This document shows, piece after piece, positions 7,738 through 40,167 of a DNA stretch of 56,349 nucleotides. Both the position numbers and the translations under genes were made by a program. Origin of the DNA: a virus. The notes beneath the pieces are model-generated. The model had not been told where the DNA came from. It did not search any database and worked only from the letters and a program-made list of their open reading frames with translations. Position 1 is the first letter of the stretch. Each line of letters begins with the position of its first letter. The stretch is taken from UHGV virus genome UHGV-0011358; one strand, given 5' to 3'.

Positions 7738-7955
7738 TGGATAAGATCGGGGCAATACTTATTAATCGTGAGCAAGTGCAAAAAATGTTAGGCGGGCTTA
7801 GCAAGTCCGCCTTTTTTAAACTGGTTAAAAAATGGAAGGATTCAGGTACTCCATTCCCTGAACCCGTTAAGGGAATGCCAGCATTAAAGCGCGGCGGTTC
7901 TCTTTACCGTTATCAGGATGTTATTTCATTTTGTAGGTCAATGGGCTTCATGTAA
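7737..7955 (+). CDS. AlpA/excisionase-like small DNA-binding protein
   Basis: 72 aa, basic, HTH-like; convergent with and overlapping the integrase 3' end. Confidence 0.4.
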   Translation: MDKIGAILINREQVQKMLGGLSKSAFFKLVKKWKDSGTPFPEPVKGMPALKRGGSLYRYQDVISFCRSMGFM

Positions 7956-9112
7956 TAATCAGCAAGCATGTTCATCGCCTCTGTCTGTTCCCTCACGTAG
8001 TCATACTGATCATATATAGCCAACATCCCCGCCAGCTTATGACCTAAAACCTTTTCTGCAACGTGAGGCGCAATGCCAATGGCAGAGAGGTTCGTTCTCA
8101 CAGTGCGGCGTAGATCGTGACACGACCACGGCTCGCCGCCCATCCTTAACATCAAATCCCTTGCCGCTGTTTTCGGTACACTTCTGTCCACCGCCTCATC
8201 CCTTCCAGAAAGCACAGGAACGAAGACAAAATTAAAGCTATGCAGATCCATAGCCTCACGCAATAAATCGACGCTAACGTCGGATAAACCGCGTTTAAAC
8301 TCGTTTCTGTTCTTACTCAATGCACCCGGCACAGTCCACACGCAGTTATCAAGATCGAAATGTTCTCGCCTTGCGTTTGTTAGCTCGCTTGTCCTGCATC
8401 CGGTGAATATAATCAGTTTCATCAATATCTGATTTAGACGCGCCATTTTTGAACTGTCTATAAGGCTGATTAGATGGCGAATCTCCTGTATTGACAAAAC
8501 CCGCTTCCCTTGCGCCGGGTTTTTACCAACGTCTTTCACGCGTAGTAAAGATATGTCGTCACGATCCACGCGGCGGCGACGCATGGCGTATTTTATTACC
8601 GCTTTCATTCTATTGAGAACTATGCCCGCCTGAACTGGTGCACCACCATTAGCCACCTTTCTAAAAACACCCTCCCACATCATAGCGTCCATATCATCGA
8701 CTATATAGCTACCGTATGACCTGATGACGTGCTTATTCAACATCGCTTCAACCTGCTTATAGTTAACCATGTTTCTTGCCTGTGGTGATTCCATGTACTC
8801 CCTGACAATATCCTCAACCGTTGCCCGTGTCGTAACGCGGGAAAAGTGCATTCTTTTTACGATTGATGGATCTCGTCCTGAGTTTAACACTTCCTTATGT
8901 TCAGCCACCGCCGCGCGGGCTTCTTTAAGTGTTATTTCTCCGTATGTGCCGATCTTCATCCGTCGAGGCTTGCCGTTGAATCGGTAGCGATACTGGAAAG
9001 ATATAACTCCGCGCGGGCTTATCCTGGCAGACAATCCGCCCGCATCCGGTACTTCTTCCGGGCCGTCGTATGGCTTGCCGTGGATGTTTCTTAGTTTGGT
9101 ATCTGTAAGCAT
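7913..9112 (-). CDS. int: tyrosine integrase (P4-like)
   Basis: MLTDTKLRNI N-terminus and C-terminal catalytic region (HDLRRT, HVAEKVLGH); ATG at 9112. Confidence 0.9.
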   Translation of the reverse strand: MLTDTKLRNIHGKPYDGPEEVPDAGGLSARISPRGVISFQYRYRFNGKPRRMKIGTYGEITLKEARAAVAEHKEVLNSGRDPSIVKRMHFSRVTTRATVEDIVREYMESPQARNMVNYKQVEAMLNKHVIRSYGSYIVDDMDAMMWEGVFRKVANGGAPVQAGIVLNRMKAVIKYAMRRRRVDRDDISLLRVKDVGKNPAQGKRVLSIQEIRHLISLIDSSKMARLNQILMKLIIFTGCRTSELTNARREHFDLDNCVWTVPGALSKNRNEFKRGLSDVSVDLLREAMDLHSFNFVFVPVLSGRDEAVDRSVPKTAARDLMLRMGGEPWSCHDLRRTVRTNLSAIGIAPHVAEKVLGHKLAGMLAIYDQYDYVREQTEAMNMLADYYMKPIDLQNEITS

Positions 9113-9370
9113 AATTTGGTCACTATTTGGTACACACATTTTACGCATGGATAGTACCACGATAGGGAACGATATGACACGATAGAATAAATATTTCTTT
9201 TTAAATCAACGCGAAACGGTGACGATGCGACACGATATGAAATTATAGAAATGGCACTATCCGTTTATCTTTTGAATGGGTAGCTTAACGAAAAATCTAT
9301 TGGTATTCAATATCTTATGATTTGTTTTTGTTTTTGATTTATCAATTTGGTCACAATTTGGTACACAAAA
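9113..9370. repeat. candidate attP region with arm-type direct repeats
   Basis: AATTTGGTCACNATTTGGTACACA at 9113-9138 and 9344-9368; three to four ACACGATA copies at 9158-9243. Confidence 0.4.
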
Positions 9371-9394
9371 AGAAACGAGGCGTAAGCCTCGTTT
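9363..9394 (-). terminator. rho-independent terminator after tail fiber gene
   Basis: Hairpin AAACGAGGC-GTAA-GCCTCGTTT followed by a T-run on the minus strand. Confidence 0.5.
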
Positions 9395-9424
9395 CGCGCG
9401 GCGATGCTCTTCGCACATCACCTC

Positions 9425-12400
9425 TTATTCTTCGCTTCCTGTGAACTGACTGACAAGCGCTTCAAGTTTTGCGATCCGCTCATCCATTGCGGCAATATTA
9501 GCTTTCAGGCTGGCGTTTTCCTCTTCCAGTTCTGTGACGCGGTTATCTGTTTCTCGTGCCACCTGGACAAGCAAACCAGTCACCGCCGCATAGTCAACAT
9601 TAAGGTAGCGTGTTTCTTCTCGTAGCTCGTTGCCGTCAACGGTCGGCCCCTGCAATTCATTACCGTAACGAGTAAACGATCCTACGGCTTCCGGTAGCGC
9701 CTCCATTACTTCCTGTGCAATAACGCCAGCATAAGGAAGGCCGTTTTCCTTGAGCGTGTAGGTGTACCCGTTCATTTTGCGGATTGATTCAGTGGCTTCA
9801 CCTATAACCTGAATGTTATCTTTAAGGTCGCGGTCAGATGATTGGTGAAGTGTCTGGCATGTGATATTACCGCTAACATCAAACATTTGACCTGATGATG
9901 TTTTTTGTGCATAAAACAGGTATCCGGCAGATGTTCCAACCTCAAAAACGTTTTGTCGATCACTTGACCCCCAGACCCTGATGCTAACTGGTAGTTCTGA
10001 ATTACCTGAATTAAGTAAAGCAAAACGACTGCCCGTCCCTGTTTGTTTTCTAATTACTAAATCGGCAGTTGAATTAACCTCATTTTTGTTAACGGTTAGC
10101 GCCTGTGCTGTAGCACCGTTGACAGTACCGCTTAGTAGTTGCACTGCGCCATCATCGCCATTTAACAGCACTTGAGCGCTGCTTCTGTGGTTTTTCAGGA
10201 ACAACATTTTGCCTGTGCTTTCCGATGTACCTACCGACCACGCCGAATTGGTTTCAGTGCTATCAACACCACGCACAGTACAATTCATCGCGCTATAATC
10301 TGACGTACTTCCAAGCACATCAATTCGCCCACCACCAGATTTTACAGGAGTATCAGTGGTTAACGACCTTACGTTTACATCCTGATTCCTTCCTGAAACA
10401 ACAACCTGACTCCATGCCGACCAATTGCCATTTTCATAATAGCGAACGTATATTTGTTTTGTGTCTGTGCCAACAAGGGTTTGCAAGTTTGTATAATCTG
10501 AATCCGTGATCTTACGAATTGACTCTACACGAAGCAAAAAGTTGCCGCCTACGCCGTCAGGCTTATTGGTAATATTTGCACCGCCTCCGGCACTTTTGCA
10601 TTGATAGTATTTAACTGATCCTTTATCTGAGGCCTTAATGGTCAGATCATTAAGATCAATAGTCAGGTCGCCAATGTCTTCAGGCTCGATTGCTCCCGAT
10701 ATACCTGCGTTAAATGTGGCAAGGTCAGAAAATGTTGTTTTACCGCCTACCGTTAACCCGCTATCGAGTTTTGCTTGTGTAATTACTTTGCTGTTTTTTG
10801 AGTGGTCAGAAGAATTACCAAAATACAAATCACCGTCACCAGCTATACCTAGGTATTTTTGATCAACATCATCAACCTTAAACCCAATGGACAAGTTTTT
10901 AATTGTGTTGTTGCTCGTTAAAACCAAAGGCGTATGCTGAGATCCTTTGATGCTTACCGTAGTGTTATCGGAACTGGTGCTTGTGTTTGCAAATTCTGCG
11001 GTGGCTGCGCTGATTTTGTAAGTTATTTTTAGATTGCGGGCCTCAACCCTCCCGTCGTGGCGAACAATAAAATCACCACTTGATTCACCTTTTGTGTTTT
11101 TCGCCCTGATGTGGATTTCGCCAAGTGATTCGTTGTTTTCAGGCGACCAAACAACGCCGCGCTCGCTTCCGTCGTTGTTCATGAACCACAGATGAGCGGT
11201 TCCTTTTGCTGATTTTAGCCTGATAGATGGCATTTCTTTCAATATATCAAGATCACCAGACATAACATCGCCGGATTTTTTCACCTGCGCATCGTTCGTT
11301 ACGTTGCCAAGTCCAACATCCGATTTCGACGGCTTGTTTTGGGTTCCGTATAGCTCATTAATGGCATAAGTGCCGCTGTTGAGTCCAGTATCGTTACCAG
11401 CGAAAATCTTGACCCTGGCCTTTTCGTATTCGATATTAATCGCTGACCACGTATCACCGCACCGAGAGAATACACTAGAACCGTGGTTATAATGGGTCGC
11501 CGTGCTTCCGGTAGGCTTATCGGCACGCCAGAAATGACCGCCTTTGTCACGCAGTGCTTTTAATAGTTCTGTATTGCTCATCTTGCCGTTTGTTGCTATC
11601 CCGCTACCGCCAAGACCGAAAGCGCCTGTAAGCATAGCATTAGAAAGGCCCAAATCTGCCTTGCTGGGTTTGTTTACCTGGTCGTAAATCCTTGCTGCTG
11701 GGCTTTCAATATATCCAGCGGGTGCGTCGGCTTGCTCAACAAATCCTTCAGGAATGTATAATTCCGTGTTGCCAGTCTGCGCCAGCACCGCTACTTTTGT
11801 GTTTTTAATATAAGATCGCTGGTAGCACCAGACCTCGATATAGCCGTCACCTTTAACCAGGCCGTAACACATTTGACCATTATTGGGAAGGTTTGGTGAA
11901 CCGAGTCGGCGAATACTTAAAAATTTAGATATATTTTCACTGGTTACTTCGCCTGTGTCGTTAAGACCTCGAGCGGAGATCTCTATAAAGTCAATATTCC
12001 CGTAACTTAAACCGTAGCCACCGCCATTTGTAACCATTAGCGTTAAGTGGCAGTCTGATGACTTTGGATCGCTAAGTTTAGCAATCTTAACGTAAGCGCC
12101 ATTACCGCTAGTTTTAACAGGCCAAGCACATTGGACCATTGGGCTGGTAAGCCTTCCCATTTGATTCAGATATTCTTGCGCCCTGTTCTCTGATGTTTTG
12201 GCGTTGGTTTCGCTTGTTTTCGCTGCCGTCTCACTTGCCTTAGCGTTGGTTTCTGATGTTTTCGCTGCCGTGGCGGATTTTGCAGCCGCTGTTTTTGACG
12301 CTTCTGCTGCGTTTTTGTCGGATCCTGTTTTTTGAGCGTTGGCGGTTGATTTGGCTGTCTCTGCGCGAATGTTGGTAAGAAGCTGATCCAACTGACCTTC

Positions 12401-12745
12401 GCCGCCAAAATCCTCCCACCACTCGACAGCGGCGGCGATCTCTGTTTCCTTGCCCTGGTAGTAACGCAGGGTTTCAGCCACATCCTGAGCAAGCCCATCA
12501 ACTGAGATCGAGTCAGATAGCAGGATGCTGAATTTTGTCCCGGCAGGGATGGCGGGGTTAGCCGCTGGCGTCACTGACAGTTCAGTGCCGCTTTTAATTT
12601 CTGTGATGGTAAAGATCTGTACCGGATTGCCAACAGCAATGAGCGTGCAGCCTACACGAATGAGAGAAAGCGGCGCGGAGAAGTTTGTGCCCGTGCCTGT
12701 AACAGTATTGCCGCTAATGGCAATTGTTCCAGTTGTGTAAATCAT
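9425..12745 (-). CDS. tail fiber / tailspike with C-terminal S74-type intramolecular chaperone domain
   Basis: 1106 aa; Ala/Lys/Thr-rich repeat region; C-terminus DLKDNIQ...GVIAQEV...YAAVTGLLVQ resembles the self-cleaving chaperone domain. Confidence 0.8.
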   Translation of the reverse strand: MIYTTGTIAISGNTVTGTGTNFSAPLSLIRVGCTLIAVGNPVQIFTITEIKSGTELSVTPAANPAIPAGTKFSILLSDSISVDGLAQDVAETLRYYQGKETEIAAAVEWWEDFGGEGQLDQLLTNIRAETAKSTANAQKTGSDKNAAEASKTAAAKSATAAKTSETNAKASETAAKTSETNAKTSENRAQEYLNQMGRLTSPMVQCAWPVKTSGNGAYVKIAKLSDPKSSDCHLTLMVTNGGGYGLSYGNIDFIEISARGLNDTGEVTSENISKFLSIRRLGSPNLPNNGQMCYGLVKGDGYIEVWCYQRSYIKNTKVAVLAQTGNTELYIPEGFVEQADAPAGYIESPAARIYDQVNKPSKADLGLSNAMLTGAFGLGGSGIATNGKMSNTELLKALRDKGGHFWRADKPTGSTATHYNHGSSVFSRCGDTWSAINIEYEKARVKIFAGNDTGLNSGTYAINELYGTQNKPSKSDVGLGNVTNDAQVKKSGDVMSGDLDILKEMPSIRLKSAKGTAHLWFMNNDGSERGVVWSPENNESLGEIHIRAKNTKGESSGDFIVRHDGRVEARNLKITYKISAATAEFANTSTSSDNTTVSIKGSQHTPLVLTSNNTIKNLSIGFKVDDVDQKYLGIAGDGDLYFGNSSDHSKNSKVITQAKLDSGLTVGGKTTFSDLATFNAGISGAIEPEDIGDLTIDLNDLTIKASDKGSVKYYQCKSAGGGANITNKPDGVGGNFLLRVESIRKITDSDYTNLQTLVGTDTKQIYVRYYENGNWSAWSQVVVSGRNQDVNVRSLTTDTPVKSGGGRIDVLGSTSDYSAMNCTVRGVDSTETNSAWSVGTSESTGKMLFLKNHRSSAQVLLNGDDGAVQLLSGTVNGATAQALTVNKNEVNSTADLVIRKQTGTGSRFALLNSGNSELPVSIRVWGSSDRQNVFEVGTSAGYLFYAQKTSSGQMFDVSGNITCQTLHQSSDRDLKDNIQVIGEATESIRKMNGYTYTLKENGLPYAGVIAQEVMEALPEAVGSFTRYGNELQGPTVDGNELREETRYLNVDYAAVTGLLVQVARETDNRVTELEEENASLKANIAAMDERIAKLEALVSQFTGSEE

Positions 12746-12922
12746 CTCGATGACTCCATTTTGTTAATTAACGGAATAATTCTACCATTTTATGATCTGT
12801 GTTGCATTTTCTGCTTACACAAAATGTATTTGTTGATTTATATCAATATACGAAGTGTTGTTTTGTCGGATATTCAAGACACCGGATGAACCGGACGAGC
12901 TAACAAGAACGAGGATTAAAAA

Positions 12923-13171
12923 ATGAAAAACATGTTCAAAGTGGTTTTATTCTCTGCGGCTGTAGCTCTTACTGGTTGCGCTGTTGACAAAGAGACCGCA
13001 TTGCATAACCTGCCGAATAGCGGAGTAATTCCACAAGATGTTGTCTATGATGGTGAAGGTCATCTTGTCTATGACACTGAAAAACTGCCTTATACTGGTC
13101 AATGGTGTCATGAACTCGATCACAACATGCGCCGCATCGGTAGCCCTTCTAACTGTGTAGCTAACTACTAA
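12923..13171 (+). CDS. small lipoprotein (moron; Cor-like candidate)
   Basis: 82 aa; signal peptide with lipobox LTGC; opposite strand to flanking tail genes; own terminator. Confidence 0.65.
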   Translation: MKNMFKVVLFSAAVALTGCAVDKETALHNLPNSGVIPQDVVYDGEGHLVYDTEKLPYTGQWCHELDHNMRRIGSPSNCVANY

Positions 13172-13178
13172 AAGAAAA

Positions 13179-13200
13179 CCCCGCGCGAAGCGGGGTTTTT
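13179..13200 (+). terminator. rho-independent terminator (bidirectional)
   Basis: CCCCGC-GCGAA-GCGGGG hairpin followed by TTTTT. Confidence 0.6.
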
Positions 13201-13202
13201 GT

Positions 13203-16200
13203 TTATCCTGAGAATGAACCAGAACCGCGCGACACTATGACTGTCGGCGAATTTATATAAGCCCCCTTGTCATTTTGAGCAGATACCTTAATTTTAACTG
13301 TAACGCCCCTGCTGGTTACTGCTGCTGAATGCATAACAAGGCGCTCCGTGCCATCCAGTGCTAAACCTTTTGATGAACCGCCAATTGTTATTGTGCAACC
13401 ACCAAAACCCTTAACGTTAGCCATAACGCAGATATGTCGGCTATACGCTGCGTCAGATGTGTCATTGTATGTTATTACTTTTTCTAACGCCCCATCCCTT
13501 AACGTGCTAACGTCAGAACCTGTGTACATGTTTGCAACATCACCGATAAAGGTTTTCGCCTCAAGTGAACCGGTAAACTTGCCGCTGTCTGCATGTATTT
13601 CACCCCTTACAACAACGTTGTTAAATTCTGATGCGCCGCTTTGTGTTATCCTCCAACCATTGGAACCGGGGACGAAGTTTGCTGATTTAATTTCATTGAC
13701 AATTTTAGCCATAGTAATGGAGGCATCTGCAATTTTAGCTGTCCCTATTGATGCATCCTTAATAAATGCCTCTTTCACATACATTGCGCCGTTAGTGACA
13801 TAGAAGGGCGATGTATATGCGCCGTTTGCCGCCGTCATTAACATAAAGCGATCAACAAGGAAAATACACTGCGACTGAAAGTTAGTGCCGTCACCAGTAA
13901 GGCCAAGCGACATACCTGTAGCGTATTTTACGCCATTGCTATCTGTGGCGAGCTTGATTGAATATGTCGCATCAACATTACCCCTAAAGTCGGTTAACGC
14001 TTTAGATGTCGTCTCTATTGCCGTCTTGTTCCCGTTAACGGTCACTGTTAGCTGATCAATTTTCGTTGACAACGCCTCGTCTGCCGTAGCCATTGTCTGC
14101 GACCATTCTGTAATACTTGAGTTTACTGATTCGAAAGACGCTGAGATCTGGCTAAATTTTTCCGCGCTTGATTCCTCATGCGTAGAGAGCGCCGTCGACA
14201 CTTCAGATACTTTTGAGTTGATCGTACTGGTAAGCGATGCGCTAAGGCCGCTTATTGCGTCCGCGCGTGCTTTTTTTTCGTCGGCGATGGCTTTGTCCAT
14301 CCTGGTGACGTTGCTTGTCACTTTATTATCAAGCGTGCTGACACTTGCGCTAACTTCGCTGATAGCTTGTCCTCTGGCGCTTGTTTCGTCAGCAATTACC
14401 TGATCAAGACGGTTTACGCTTGCTTCAGTCTTCTTATCAAGATTAGTGATCGATGCGTTTACACCGCTAATGGCTTCAGCCGTTGCTTTTTTCTCTTCAG
14501 CGATAACGTTGTCAATACGGTCAATTTTCGCGTTGGTTTCTCTGATTCCTTTCTTGTATTGGGCTGAAAGAGTAACACGCGTGTTGGTTTGAGCGATTGA
14601 GTTATTGATAAGTGCAATAGATGCGTTTTGCAGGCTTGCTTTTGCCTGATTTATTTCGTCGCTGTTTTTGCCAACATTATTTTCAACAGTGCCAAGATTT
14701 GCGCTGAGGCCTGATATTGCCTGAGCGCGGGCGCTTGATTCATCGGCAATTGCCTGATCAAGACGCTTAACGCTGGCGTTTGTGCTGTTCTCAAGCGTTG
14801 TTAAGTCTGCTTTAACCTCTGTTATTGCGTCGCTTCTTGCCTTCGTTTCGTCTGATATTGCTTTATCAAGGCGGGAAACGCTGGCATCTGTTTTCTTATC
14901 AAGGCTGTCTATTGATGCCTTCACGCCGCTAACGGCCTGTGCGCGGGCACTGGCCTCGTCAGCGATTGCCTGATCCAGGCGTTTAACGCTGGCGTCAGTT
15001 TTCTTATCAAGTGCCGAGATACTTGCGTTAACGTCACTGACCGCCTGTGTGCGGGCGTTCGTTTCATCTGCAATAGCCTGATCAAGCCTATTGACGCTGG
15101 CATCCGTTTTCTTGTCGAGATTGCTTATTGAGGCGTTCACACCGTTAATAGCTTCAGCGCGGGCACTAGCCTCGTCAGCCACTGCGCGTTCCACACTGGA
15201 GATCTGACCTTTAAGGTTGGAATCCATCGTGTTCATTTCTGCCGTGATGGTTTTCAGTGATTCAGCCGTTGCTTTTTTCTCTTCAGCGATAACGTTGTCA
15301 ATACGGTCAATTTCCGCTTTCGTTTCCGTTCTGCCTTTTTTGTACTGGGCGGTAAGGGTAACGCGCGTGTTTGTCTGTGCAAGCGAGTTGTTGATAAGCG
15401 CCAATGACGCGTTTTGCAGGCTTGCTTTTGCTTGCGCCAGTTCGCTGCCAACTTTTTCGCTGGACACTTCTAATAGGTCAATCCTGGACTCATGCTGACC
15501 AATATCATCGGCGTTTTCCTTAACTTTTTTGTAAAGATCTTCCGTTTCTTTTTTAAGTGTATCGGTGTCAGCTTTTATTGTTCCCGTTTCTGTGATCAGG
15601 TTGTCAGTGTCAGTCCTTAAATCTTCAGTTACGTTCGTAAGGTTATCAGTTGTAGTTTTGAGGTTGTCAGTAGCTGTTTTCAGTTCTTCCGCAACACCTT
15701 CGATAACATCGGTGCGGTCGCCTAGATCTTTGATGTCACCAATCATTTCCTTGAACTGTTCCGACCCCATGACATCCTTCATCACGTAGTCACTGATTTC
15801 ATCAAAATTCTCTGTCGGCTTACCTGACGCCTCTACAAAGTCAGACACGCCAAAAGCATTGCGTGTGCGCACGTAAACGTAATAAGTATGGCCCGTGTTC
15901 ATTCCGCCGAACGTCCACTGATAACCACGTCCGGTATATTGTGCATTAGTGGGGACTAATGCCGGATTAGTGATTTGTGTTTCGCCAGCAAAATAGAATT
16001 CATAGCTTGTATCGCTGGTCAGAGTTGTTTTGCTGATTGGGTATACAGTAGCCTGAAATACGCCTGGTATCCAGTTAACACCAATTGGTTTTGAAGGTGC
16101 ACCAATAACGAGATCAACGATAGATTCCGCGCCTTTCATACCGGTATCATTGCGGGCGCGAACGCCTAAAGAGTATTGACCGCAATTCAGGCCATTAAAA

Positions 16201-18215
16201 TCATACCGGAATTCGGTCGTCTCATAACTGGCGACAACTTTGCTGTCTTCGTTATAAACACGTAATTCAAAGGTCAGGCGGTGAGTTGTGGTCTGCGTCA
16301 TCCACGACGCGGAGCACTGAACGGTTTCGGAACCAACATTCATTACCTTGAGGTTTTCAATGTTAGGAACACGGAAATGATTCAGCGTGTCGTTGTTGAT
16401 TTCGAAGACTGCGCCTTCATCAACTACGGCCTGTTTGTTAGGGTCGTGCTGTGCGGCTTCGATAGTGTATACGCTGTTATTTTCTGTTTCTGCTACGCTG
16501 GTGATCCTACATAAAACGGGTTTTGCTGCTTCAGTCGATACAGCAAAAACAGTGCCATTGCGAATCCATGCCGGGGCCGCAGCAAGGGTAATATTGTTTC
16601 CATTAACTCCGGTGATCTGGTGTTTTTTAAATTTACCATCGCTATCAAGTAAGCTGATGGTGTCACCAGCCGCGATATATTCAGAATCAACCTTGTCGAC
16701 CGTTATCACTTTGCCATTGTTCGCCACGATACGACCGCCTAAGCGAGCGCCTGCGCGGTTATTGTCGAGGATCTCGATGATATCCCCTGGTGTAAAGTGA
16801 ATGGCGTCACGGGCCATTTTAAACGTGAATTTTGACGGCTCGCGTTTTGCTGTTTCGATCAGCCATTTACCAGCGCGATAAGCCTGTCCGCGAGACGTGC
16901 ACCCGAACGCCTCTAGCGTGGTTTCGTTGTAGCCGTCGCGGGCGATTAGTTCATCGTCAGAAACGTATTCTTTTGACTGTTCCCAACCGTTACCCGGATC
17001 GGTCCAGGATACAATCACGGCGTTGTAGCACTCCGCGCGGGCAAGGCTCGAACGGGTGAATGCACCATCTACGACATTTGCGTTCGTGATAGTTGCAATC
17101 GGATCTTGTGGCGCATCAATCATCACTGTAAGACGTTGCCCGTCCCATAACGCAATACCACGGAACATGCCAGCAATGTTATCCAGTAGGTCGCGGGCGC
17201 TCATTTGCTCCGTAATGTAAGCGTTAAGCGTCATGCGAGGTTCAAGGCCACCATAGCCATCATCAACCAACTGATCGCAGTATTGGGAGAGCACGTACAA
17301 AGCGCCATCATCAACATCAATGTAACCAGCATGTCGAGCAAGCCCGAAGCGCTCGTTTTTAACCAGATACCGGAAAATCCACGCAGGGTTATTGGTGTAC
17401 GCTTTTTTGAATCCACCAAGCCATAAGCCCGAATATGTGCGCGTTTCTGTGTTGTAGTTATCAGGCACGTCAACAATCAGGCCGCGAAGATGATAGGTGC
17501 GGGTAGGTGTATCAGTGTACTGGTCATGGTCAATCACAGCGCCAGCTACAGCGGTATGAGGATAAGACAGATTATCGTCTATGATTTCGCTGTAACTACT
17601 CCACCGCGTATCATTCTGCAATAGATCGCTGTTGCTGTCTGCTGTTATGCGACGAATGCGAATATCAAACGGTTTTTCATCCGGCGCTTTGATAATGTGA
17701 GCTTCCAGATATTCACCGCTTTGTTTACCGGGGCCAATGTGTATATCTTTAATCAGCGACCATGTAGAAGATGATGACGGTTTAACGTCAACCATCAACA
17801 TAACGGATGTATTGTATTGATTGCCCTTGTCGTCTGACTGAACGAGAGCGTCAACACCAAGATTCAACCTGACGCGGGTAACGTTTGGATCTGAAACAGT
17901 CCTGATTATTGGCGTGTCGTGAGTTACCTTTGCGTTGACAATAACGGTTGACTCGATGGCATTAAAACCATTAATCGGCGATTGGTCAGCCGTGCCGTTT
18001 CGCCAGGCTATACTAATCCCCGGTATTGATGTATTCCCGTTTGCGTCAGTAACAGGCGTGTCATTAAGCATCACGTTATTCAGTGGTGCTTTCTGGTTTA
18101 CCGGACCATATATCGGCCCCTCACTGAGAATATCTAAGACACGATAAAACTGTTTATGATACAGGTTATCGTTCAATAATGTTGGTGTTTTGGCTTTGCC
18201 GCCGCCGCTACTCAT
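13203..18215 (-). CDS. J: central tail fiber / host specificity protein J
   Basis: 1670 aa; N-terminal two thirds align by eye with lambda J; has an added coiled-coil repeat insertion. Confidence 0.9.
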   Translation of the reverse strand: MSSGGGKAKTPTLLNDNLYHKQFYRVLDILSEGPIYGPVNQKAPLNNVMLNDTPVTDANGNTSIPGISIAWRNGTADQSPINGFNAIESTVIVNAKVTHDTPIIRTVSDPNVTRVRLNLGVDALVQSDDKGNQYNTSVMLMVDVKPSSSSTWSLIKDIHIGPGKQSGEYLEAHIIKAPDEKPFDIRIRRITADSNSDLLQNDTRWSSYSEIIDDNLSYPHTAVAGAVIDHDQYTDTPTRTYHLRGLIVDVPDNYNTETRTYSGLWLGGFKKAYTNNPAWIFRYLVKNERFGLARHAGYIDVDDGALYVLSQYCDQLVDDGYGGLEPRMTLNAYITEQMSARDLLDNIAGMFRGIALWDGQRLTVMIDAPQDPIATITNANVVDGAFTRSSLARAECYNAVIVSWTDPGNGWEQSKEYVSDDELIARDGYNETTLEAFGCTSRGQAYRAGKWLIETAKREPSKFTFKMARDAIHFTPGDIIEILDNNRAGARLGGRIVANNGKVITVDKVDSEYIAAGDTISLLDSDGKFKKHQITGVNGNNITLAAAPAWIRNGTVFAVSTEAAKPVLCRITSVAETENNSVYTIEAAQHDPNKQAVVDEGAVFEINNDTLNHFRVPNIENLKVMNVGSETVQCSASWMTQTTTHRLTFELRVYNEDSKVVASYETTEFRYDFNGLNCGQYSLGVRARNDTGMKGAESIVDLVIGAPSKPIGVNWIPGVFQATVYPISKTTLTSDTSYEFYFAGETQITNPALVPTNAQYTGRGYQWTFGGMNTGHTYYVYVRTRNAFGVSDFVEASGKPTENFDEISDYVMKDVMGSEQFKEMIGDIKDLGDRTDVIEGVAEELKTATDNLKTTTDNLTNVTEDLRTDTDNLITETGTIKADTDTLKKETEDLYKKVKENADDIGQHESRIDLLEVSSEKVGSELAQAKASLQNASLALINNSLAQTNTRVTLTAQYKKGRTETKAEIDRIDNVIAEEKKATAESLKTITAEMNTMDSNLKGQISSVERAVADEASARAEAINGVNASISNLDKKTDASVNRLDQAIADETNARTQAVSDVNASISALDKKTDASVKRLDQAIADEASARAQAVSGVKASIDSLDKKTDASVSRLDKAISDETKARSDAITEVKADLTTLENSTNASVKRLDQAIADESSARAQAISGLSANLGTVENNVGKNSDEINQAKASLQNASIALINNSIAQTNTRVTLSAQYKKGIRETNAKIDRIDNVIAEEKKATAEAISGVNASITNLDKKTEASVNRLDQVIADETSARGQAISEVSASVSTLDNKVTSNVTRMDKAIADEKKARADAISGLSASLTSTINSKVSEVSTALSTHEESSAEKFSQISASFESVNSSITEWSQTMATADEALSTKIDQLTVTVNGNKTAIETTSKALTDFRGNVDATYSIKLATDSNGVKYATGMSLGLTGDGTNFQSQCIFLVDRFMLMTAANGAYTSPFYVTNGAMYVKEAFIKDASIGTAKIADASITMAKIVNEIKSANFVPGSNGWRITQSGASEFNNVVVRGEIHADSGKFTGSLEAKTFIGDVANMYTGSDVSTLRDGALEKVITYNDTSDAAYSRHICVMANVKGFGGCTITIGGSSKGLALDGTERLVMHSAAVTSRGVTVKIKVSAQNDKGAYINSPTVIVSRGSGSFSG

Positions 18216-39468: not shown

Positions 39469-40167
39469 TTATTTTTCATTGCAATATTGCGCAGTTTCCG
39501 TGTCAAATATGCGACACCGAAAAAATGAACATCCCAACTCCTCTTCAATACGGCGCTGACGTATAGCGTCAGATGCCTCCTGGCTTTTATGATGCCCTTC
39601 GTCAATTTCTACGGCGATATTATTTACCGGATCATAACCATCTATCCGGTATTCCAATACCTTATATTGTCTAATTAGCTTAACACCAACCAATTGTTCA
39701 TACATGCATAAAGCGCCGTGCTCAATTCTGGCAAACGCCTCATTGCCGTAAGGTCTATTATTCTCAATACCACACAACCACGCATCATAAGCAGCGGCCA
39801 CATCTTTTGTTGCGTAAGTCTTACTGCCTATAACTTTTGTGCTGTCTTTGTATATCCACCCACGACGTTGCAACCAAAGATAAGGACGACGCGACTCGGG
39901 CGCATCGTGATTCCTCCATATATCTGTAAGGCAGACAAGTGACGATACTTTAGTCAATGACCTGGCCAACCAGCCGCCATACTCATTTGCCACATATTGC
40001 GGAGCAAAATACCCGCGAGCAGCGCTCCCTTTTTTCCCTATCCGTCGCAACTCACACTTATCTTGATATTCCTCACCGCTTTTGCTATTCAACCAGCAAG
40101 CTGGGGAATAACCTTTCTCGCTTCCGAATTTATGCCATATTGATGACAATAAAACCATTTCTTCCAT
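39469..40167 (-). CDS. hypothetical protein, possible restriction-endonuclease-like C-terminal domain
   Basis: 232 aa; C-terminal NIAVEIDEGHH...RQRRIEEELGCSFFRC resembles Vsr/DUF559-type endonuclease folds. Confidence 0.45.
   Translation of the reverse strand: MEEMVLLSSIWHKFGSEKGYSPACWLNSKSGEEYQDKCELRRIGKKGSAARGYFAPQYVANEYGGWLARSLTKVSSLVCLTDIWRNHDAPESRRPYLWLQRRGWIYKDSTKVIGSKTYATKDVAAAYDAWLCGIENNRPYGNEAFARIEHGALCMYEQLVGVKLIRQYKVLEYRIDGYDPVNNIAVEIDEGHHKSQEASDAIRQRRIEEELGCSFFRCRIFDTETAQYCNEK

Follow-up and report, generated by a model that had tools for sequence, protein, structure and literature searches.

A small lipoprotein encoded antisense to the tail genes of the virus genome UHGV-0011358 is probably a receptor-blocking protein (superinfection-exclusion or lytic-conversion) that is specific for LamB-dependent phages and alters LamB from the periplasmic side. 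The window, i.e. the whole stretch of 56,349 nucleotides that was analysed, is a mEpimmI-type temperate coliphage, mEpimmI being a group of Nus-dependent non-lambdoid temperate phages (PMC11893012). Its tail region shows about 85% DNA identity to the Mexican coliphages mEp554, mEp010, mEp044 and mEp013 and to phage MagusPhagus. All five relatives carry a lipoprotein gene in the same slot and orientation and with the same terminator, and its products are 92–95% identical to the window lipoprotein in mEp044, mEp010, mEp013 and mEp554, and 91.5% identical in MagusPhagus. Relative to Lpp010 (mEp010 gp116) the overall identity is 95%, with 62 of the 64 residues of the mature part being identical; the four substitutions are V4M and A11S in the signal peptide, and A25T and S45E in the mature part. 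The gene is of a type that is already known, that of the type-C Lpp exclusion lipoproteins, and can be annotated as a member of it. The first-pass annotation had described the sequence as not recognised. This holds for Pfam, NCBIfam and PADLOC; the protein does, however, fall into PHROG 12984 (E = 3.9e-27, covering positions 5–77 of 77), and its family has a name in the literature. The only other PHROG match, to phrog_1754 (E = 0.029), is to a family for which no function is annotated. The genomic island comprising the gene is also present in prophages of 13–18 of 5426 complete E. coli genomes, where the RefSeq label is 'hypothetical'.

Type-C Lpp was named by Negrete-Mendez et al. 2025 (PMC11893012), and in that work mEp010 gp116 was cloned in a low-copy Ptac vector and expressed in W3110, with spot assays as the readout of exclusion. 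Expression of Lpp010 excluded mEp010, mEp044, mEp554 and, unexpectedly, lambda, while the plating of mEp013 was not inhibited; mEp010, mEp013, mEp044, mEp554 and lambda all fail to plate on a lamB knockout (PMC11893012). This phenotype belongs to a homologue of 95% identity, and the window lipoprotein is expected to exclude LamB-dependent phages as well. The phages mEp021 and mEp515 are OmpA-dependent, and their type-A lipoprotein excludes only those two phages (PMC11893012). The mEp021 lipoprotein occupies the same slot, and in a profile comparison has only the signal peptide in common with the window lipoprotein. In mEp021 this slot (1762–2915 of the stretch compared) holds two genes that run antisense to J, one for the 72-aa type-A lipoprotein and one for a 311-aa 'virion structural protein'. 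The slot thus behaves as an exchangeable cassette.

The coordinates of the lipoprotein gene, its signals and its neighbours are collected in Table 1. The arrangement described in the first-pass annotation, an 82-aa lipoprotein gene with its own terminator lying antisense between J and the tail fibre, was confirmed: the ORF on the plus strand encodes a signal peptide and a lipobox (LTG/C), it is followed by a stable hairpin with a T-run on the plus strand, and both J and the fibre gene are on the minus strand.

Table 1. Features of the lipoprotein island and its flanking genes (positions in the window)
Feature	Position	Strand	Description
Lateral tail fibre	9425..12745	-	1106 aa; downstream neighbour of the island; Peptidase_S74, E = 3e-13
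AT-rich conserved intergenic region	12746..12922	+	89–91.5% identity to relatives (flanking genes 46–86%)
Shine-Dalgarno sequence GAGGA	12911-12915	+	7 nt 5' of the ATG; invariant across six phages
Lipoprotein precursor gene	12923..13171	+	82 aa plus stop, ATG start; type-C Lpp of mEpimmI phages
Signal peptide	12923-12976	+	codons 1-18
Lipobox LTGC	12968-12979	+	L16-T17-G18-C19; fits [LVI][ASTVI][GAS]C
Mature protein	12977-13168	+	C19-Y82, 64 residues, with conserved Cys62 and Cys78
GC-rich hairpin terminator	13174..13200		11 pairs, -20 kcal/mol, z = -4.8; 0/200 shuffles as stable
J, central tail fibre / tip attachment protein	13203..18215	-	1670 aa; Pfam GpJ domains
J receptor-binding end	13206-13544	-	last ~113 aa

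The translated product of the ORF is MKNMFKVVLFSAAVALTGCAVDKETALHNLPNSGVIPQDVVYDGEGHLVYDTEKLPYTGQWCHELDHNMRRIGSPSNCVANY. The N-terminus of the precursor, MKNMFKVVLFSAAVALTG directly before the lipobox cysteine, consists of a basic n-region (MKNMFK) and a hydrophobic core, followed by the lipobox; the signal peptide matches Pfam LPAM_1 only weakly. The residue at position +2 of the lipoprotein is Ala, and not Asp. The ORF represents a genuine gene rather than a chance reading frame: 44 phage records contain a conserved counterpart (search at E <= 1), its pN/pS amounts to 0.15–0.23 against five close relatives, and the DNA of the island (intergenic region, coding sequence and terminator) is 89–97% identical to that of the relatives, compared to 46–86% at the flanks, i.e. 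the 3' end of J and the 5' end of the fibre gene. The GC content of the island is 38–39%, versus about 45–50% in its surroundings.

The intergenic region upstream of the lipoprotein gene presumably holds the promoter and 5' UTR of this gene on the plus strand, and the ribosome-binding site of the tail-fibre gene on the minus strand. The sole sigma-70-like site on the plus strand (12768–12796, TTAACG-17-TATGAT) is weak and scores at chance level; in the scan no promoter of the lipoprotein gene itself rose above chance, and none was convincing by eye. [quoted passage not shown] A 42-codon ORF with a TTG start (12761..12889, plus strand) within this region was rejected as a gene, as a 1-nt indel in mEp013 breaks its frame. 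Similar ORFs are annotated as 'hypothetical protein' in the relatives, with starts and lengths that vary between phages, and the segment is probably conserved non-coding regulatory DNA. The terminator hairpin begins three bases past the stop codon of the lipoprotein gene. It is common to the convergent lipoprotein and J genes, and is followed on the plus strand by the T-run TTTTTGTTT, while the T-tract on the minus strand has only 4 T. The same hairpin is annotated as a Rho-independent terminator in the records of mEp010, mEp013, mEp044 and mEp554. An Rfam scan of the region gave sub-threshold matches only, most of which overlap the terminator hairpin.

The neighbouring genes were characterised as well. 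Across 866 aa, the J protein of the window shares 38% identity with that of lambda. Within J, the segment 14877..15113 and its surroundings (~14000–15700) consist of degenerate tandem repeats of 108 nt (36 aa), encoding coiled-coil units of the type DKKT.ASV.RLDQAIADE, and the length of J varies from 1478 to 1828 aa among the relatives, apparently via this repeat region. The tail fibre carries a Peptidase_S74 intramolecular chaperone at its C-terminus (aa 970–1021). Its gene is a mosaic: parts of it show 81–85% DNA identity to lambdoid side tail fibres (Ayreon, vB_EcoS-640R1), about 78% to mEp460, and 82–85% to the long tail fibres found in T5-like phages of Salmonella. Directly downstream of the fibre gene lies a gene for a tyrosine integrase (7913..9160, minus strand; Arm-DNA-bind_3 plus Phage_integrase), and the 35% GC gap between the two (9050..9350) may hold attP.

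The first-pass annotation had also likened the protein to Cor-like superinfection-exclusion lipoproteins, and this was supported, with qualifications. The functional class is right, since the homologue Lpp010 excludes phages, but the likeness to Cor is one of analogy and not of homology: in an hhalign comparison of the family profile with phi80 Cor, residues 1–26 alone align, corresponding to the signal peptide and lipobox. Likewise, residues 1–22 alone align with T5 Llp (the query sequence of which agreed at 100% with T5 records). Profile searches gave no match to a family model of Lom, Bor or Cor. A Pfam scan (E <= 10) returned only LPAM_1, with no match to Lambda_Bor or Lom/Ail; scans of NCBIfam and PADLOC gave signal-peptide noise or nothing, and a sequence profile search of the PDB gave chance matches only. 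Structure prediction was not informative either: AlphaFold2 (AF2) models had a pLDDT of 54 with a 23-sequence alignment, while for the mature protein as a single sequence the best model reached 74.6 and the other four 35–43, and were thus inconsistent. With these unreliable models as query, Foldseek found 0 matches in the PDB at E <= 0.001, and none to Llp or Rtp45. The lipoprotein would function like Cor and Llp without being a member of either family.

No remote relatives emerged when 1.84 billion representatives were scanned in an HMM search without filters: the family itself accounted for only three clusters at 50% identity, one of them a frameshifted copy, and two giant repeat proteins from the same search were judged to be spurious. 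Homologues of 47–60% identity are encoded by Seuratvirus/Nonagvirus phages (Seurat, CAjan, 9g, slur01, Skure, WildeMaa, SeppeHuegi, KurtStettler, GottfriedDienst and others), by Dhillonvirus (EP23, HH3, PNS1, Maverick, CS16), by CSP1-like phages and by an Enterobacter phage. In an alignment of 25 family members, the lipobox Cys, P31-N-S-G-V-x-P37, T52-E53, T58-G-Q-W61, R71, G73 and S76-N-C78 are invariant, and Cys62 is nearly so; the invariant family motifs are PNSGV.P, DTEKLP.TGQWC and RIGSPSNC. The lipoproteins of the Seuratvirus, Nonagvirus and Dhillonvirus phages (e.g. WildeMaa bas23_0021, and those of CAjan, Seurat, 9g, EP23 and HH3) share with the window protein the key motifs, both cysteines and the convergence with J. 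They differ in being carried by virulent phages and in being 3–5 residues shorter past the lipobox.

The gene context of these homologues is conserved as well. In WildeMaa and HH3 the lipoprotein gene is flanked by a J-like gene and the gene of the lateral tail fibre, to which it runs antisense, and on a contig from a Salmonella prophage the homologue likewise converges with J. The C-terminal ~300 residues of the window J are homologous, up to the last residue, to the J proteins of WildeMaa (29% identity, E = 2e-39), HH3 (31%, E = 7e-39) and the Salmonella prophage (34%, E = 6e-41). LamB is listed as the terminal receptor of the Seuratvirus phages Bas21–24 in the BASEL S5 table. A homologue of the lipoprotein is present in all four of these phages, and none of the remaining BASEL phages is among the 44 matches at E <= 1. 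According to the BASEL papers, the locus codes for receptor-binding proteins and for porin-directed exclusion factors, and distal GpJ domains have been reported to determine LamB targeting (preprint, bioRxiv 10.64898/2026.04.02.716166). The last 113 aa of the window J are 82–84% identical to those of mEp044, mEp013 and mEp554, all LamB-dependent, and 71% identical to those of mEp010, from which we infer that the window phage itself may use LamB. As a homologous J C-terminal domain lies next to the lipoprotein gene at every locus that was compared, the lipoprotein family and this class of J C-terminus travel together as a LamB host-recognition module. This module spans temperate and virulent siphophages, a link across lineages that is drawn explicitly in the present analysis. 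The terminal domain of MagusPhagus J (9284–9883 of the stretch compared) is 25% identical to that of the window and 49% to that of WildeMaa; one lipoprotein type (91% identity between MagusPhagus and the window) is found paired with two diverged J-end subtypes in one phage group.

Comparison with characterised systems places the window lipoprotein closest to three other small lipoproteins besides Lpp010. With Lpp010 it shares the family, the phage group, the convergent slot, the common terminator and a LamB-type J end nearby; a difference is that J in the window combines features of the excluded J type with those of the type by which mEp013 escapes. Llp of T5 is also a small outer-membrane lipoprotein (77-aa precursor) with an internal disulfide, and is encoded beside the receptor-binding gene on the opposite strand. 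It inactivates the receptor of its own phage, but this target, FhuA, is a TonB-dependent transporter with a plug, unlike LamB, and llp is divergent from oad in T5, whereas the window gene is convergent with J. Cor (phi80, N15, HK022, T1) has 77 aa and two Cys; the gene of this lipoprotein follows closely on the tail-tip and host-recognition genes of temperate siphophages, and phages that rely on the same receptor are excluded. It is, however, directed at FhuA, while the phages excluded by the 95% homologue use LamB and not FhuA, which qualifies the likeness; in addition, cor is on the same strand as J in phi80, and the mature part of Cor shows no homology to the window lipoprotein. Rtp45 of phage Rtp is a periplasmic lipoprotein of ~6 kDa whose locus, downstream of J, is of the same type. 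Its target is LptDE, and no Rtp45 match emerged from the PDB sequence profile search. Since Rtp45 binds the periplasmic rim of a plugless barrel (LptD) and perturbs the extracellular loops, it is the best mechanistic precedent for a plugless target. Both Llp acting on FhuA and Rtp45 acting on LptD are precedents for a periplasmic block of a receptor (PMC12685063).

We propose that, after export, the precursor receives its lipid at Cys19 and is processed by signal peptidase II; because residue +2 is Ala, the Lol system would then deliver the protein to the inner leaflet of the outer membrane. A Cys62–Cys78 disulfide probably stabilises the mature domain of 64 residues, as suggested by the presence of two conserved cysteines in a periplasmic protein. 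By analogy with the action of Llp on FhuA and of Rtp45 on LptD, the lipoprotein may bind the periplasmic side of LamB and change or lock it, such that the C-terminal domain of J would fail to bind productively or to trigger DNA ejection. The lipoprotein gene and the J C-terminal domain would constitute a two-part host-recognition module, convergent and with one common terminator, that is swapped between temperate and virulent siphophages. From the prophage it could exclude lambda-like and mEpimmI competitors, and in lytic growth it could prevent progeny from being wasted on LamB in debris. Removal or down-regulation of LamB was rejected as an explanation: mEp013 needs LamB and yet plates on cells expressing Lpp010, so LamB must still be present and usable there, which favours modulation of the receptor over its loss.

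LamB lacks a plug domain and has only short periplasmic turns, and for this reason the allosteric route of the Llp type is not obviously available. This leaves some room for the alternative that the lipoprotein blocks a step after adsorption, i.e. channel formation or the passage of DNA via the periplasm or inner membrane, rather than LamB itself: a plugless LamB would give a periplasmic binder no outward signalling path, and the published data are from spot assays only, with no adsorption assays (PMC11893012). We nevertheless consider a post-adsorption block unlikely, as the excluded phages share the use of LamB, whereas lambda and the mEpimmI phages are unrelated and have different tape-measure and ejection proteins. 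Moreover, the family co-varies with the J C-terminal domain and not with other tail genes, and mEp013 escapes in spite of being close kin of the excluded phages. Quite unlikely, too, is a surface-exposed lipoprotein that itself shields the outer loops of LamB, in the manner of TraT on OmpA. Such masking would make transmembrane allostery unnecessary, escape by a J variant would fit the masking of an epitope, and some small lipoproteins do reach the cell surface (LptM and Lpp are discussed in PMC12685063), but the characterised analogues at such loci, Llp and Rtp45, are periplasmic (PMC12685063), and the window lipoprotein has no similarity to TraT or to any Pfam family. Finally, although small lipoprotein morons near tail genes are classic (bor and the lom region of lambda) and the gene has a low GC content and its own terminator, a host-fitness or virulence moron (Bor- or Iss-like serum resistance) or an outer-membrane spanin subunit unrelated to exclusion is very improbable, given the lack of a Lambda_Bor, Lom, Pfam or NCBIfam family match, the exclusion phenotype of the 95% homologue (PMC11893012) and the homologues in strictly virulent Seuratvirus and Dhillonvirus phages, in which lysogenic conversion would be senseless. 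An o-spanin (Rz1-type) role in particular was rejected, as the lysis cassette, with lysozyme (38694..39185) and Rz (38236..38706; Phage_lysis), is 25 kb away from the lipoprotein gene; the phenotype, the virulent carriers and the distant lysis cassette together essentially exclude an unrelated moron function. Beside the lysis cassette, a 232-aa ORF (39469..40167, minus strand) has weak matches to DUF559 and to restriction-endonuclease-like domains.

Returning to the proposed block of LamB from the periplasm, the escape of mEp013 bears on the question of protection against the own phage. The mature Lpp of mEp013 is identical to that of Lpp010, and since mEp013 carries this protein and yet escapes Lpp010, protection against the own phage is not guaranteed. 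Over the last 250 residues of J (window 13206..13955), 40 positions set mEp013 apart from each of the three excluded phages, and at 21 of these the window J has the mEp013-specific residue. These residues are mostly found in segment 72–124 of the last 250, the terminal ~100 residues being mixed. The window J mixes excluded and mEp013 escape residues, and the phage may or may not be excluded by its own lipoprotein. A bolder reading, which we put forward tentatively and regard as rather doubtful, is that the family represents the first known exclusion factor that acts from the periplasm against a classical trimeric porin without a plug (LamB) and disables it, by a mechanism other than that of Llp on FhuA, that J end and lipoprotein form a portable LamB module, and that the mEp013-type J end, partly present in the window, is a natural escape variant. 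Such a route could for instance involve entry of the invariant C-terminal half of the lipoprotein into the periplasmic vestibule of LamB and a repositioning of the extracellular loops.

In at least four siphophage lineages the presence of this family points to a host-recognition module that targets LamB, so that it is useful for predicting LamB use and cross-resistance from genomes. For a lysogen of the window phage, resistance to lambda is expected, and probably also to Seuratvirus-type phages. What remains of interest is how a 64-residue periplasmic lipoprotein would disable a plugless porin, together with the module that appears to be shared across lineages; the published escape of mEp013 shows that the arms race at LamB can be read from the variation in the C-terminus of J.
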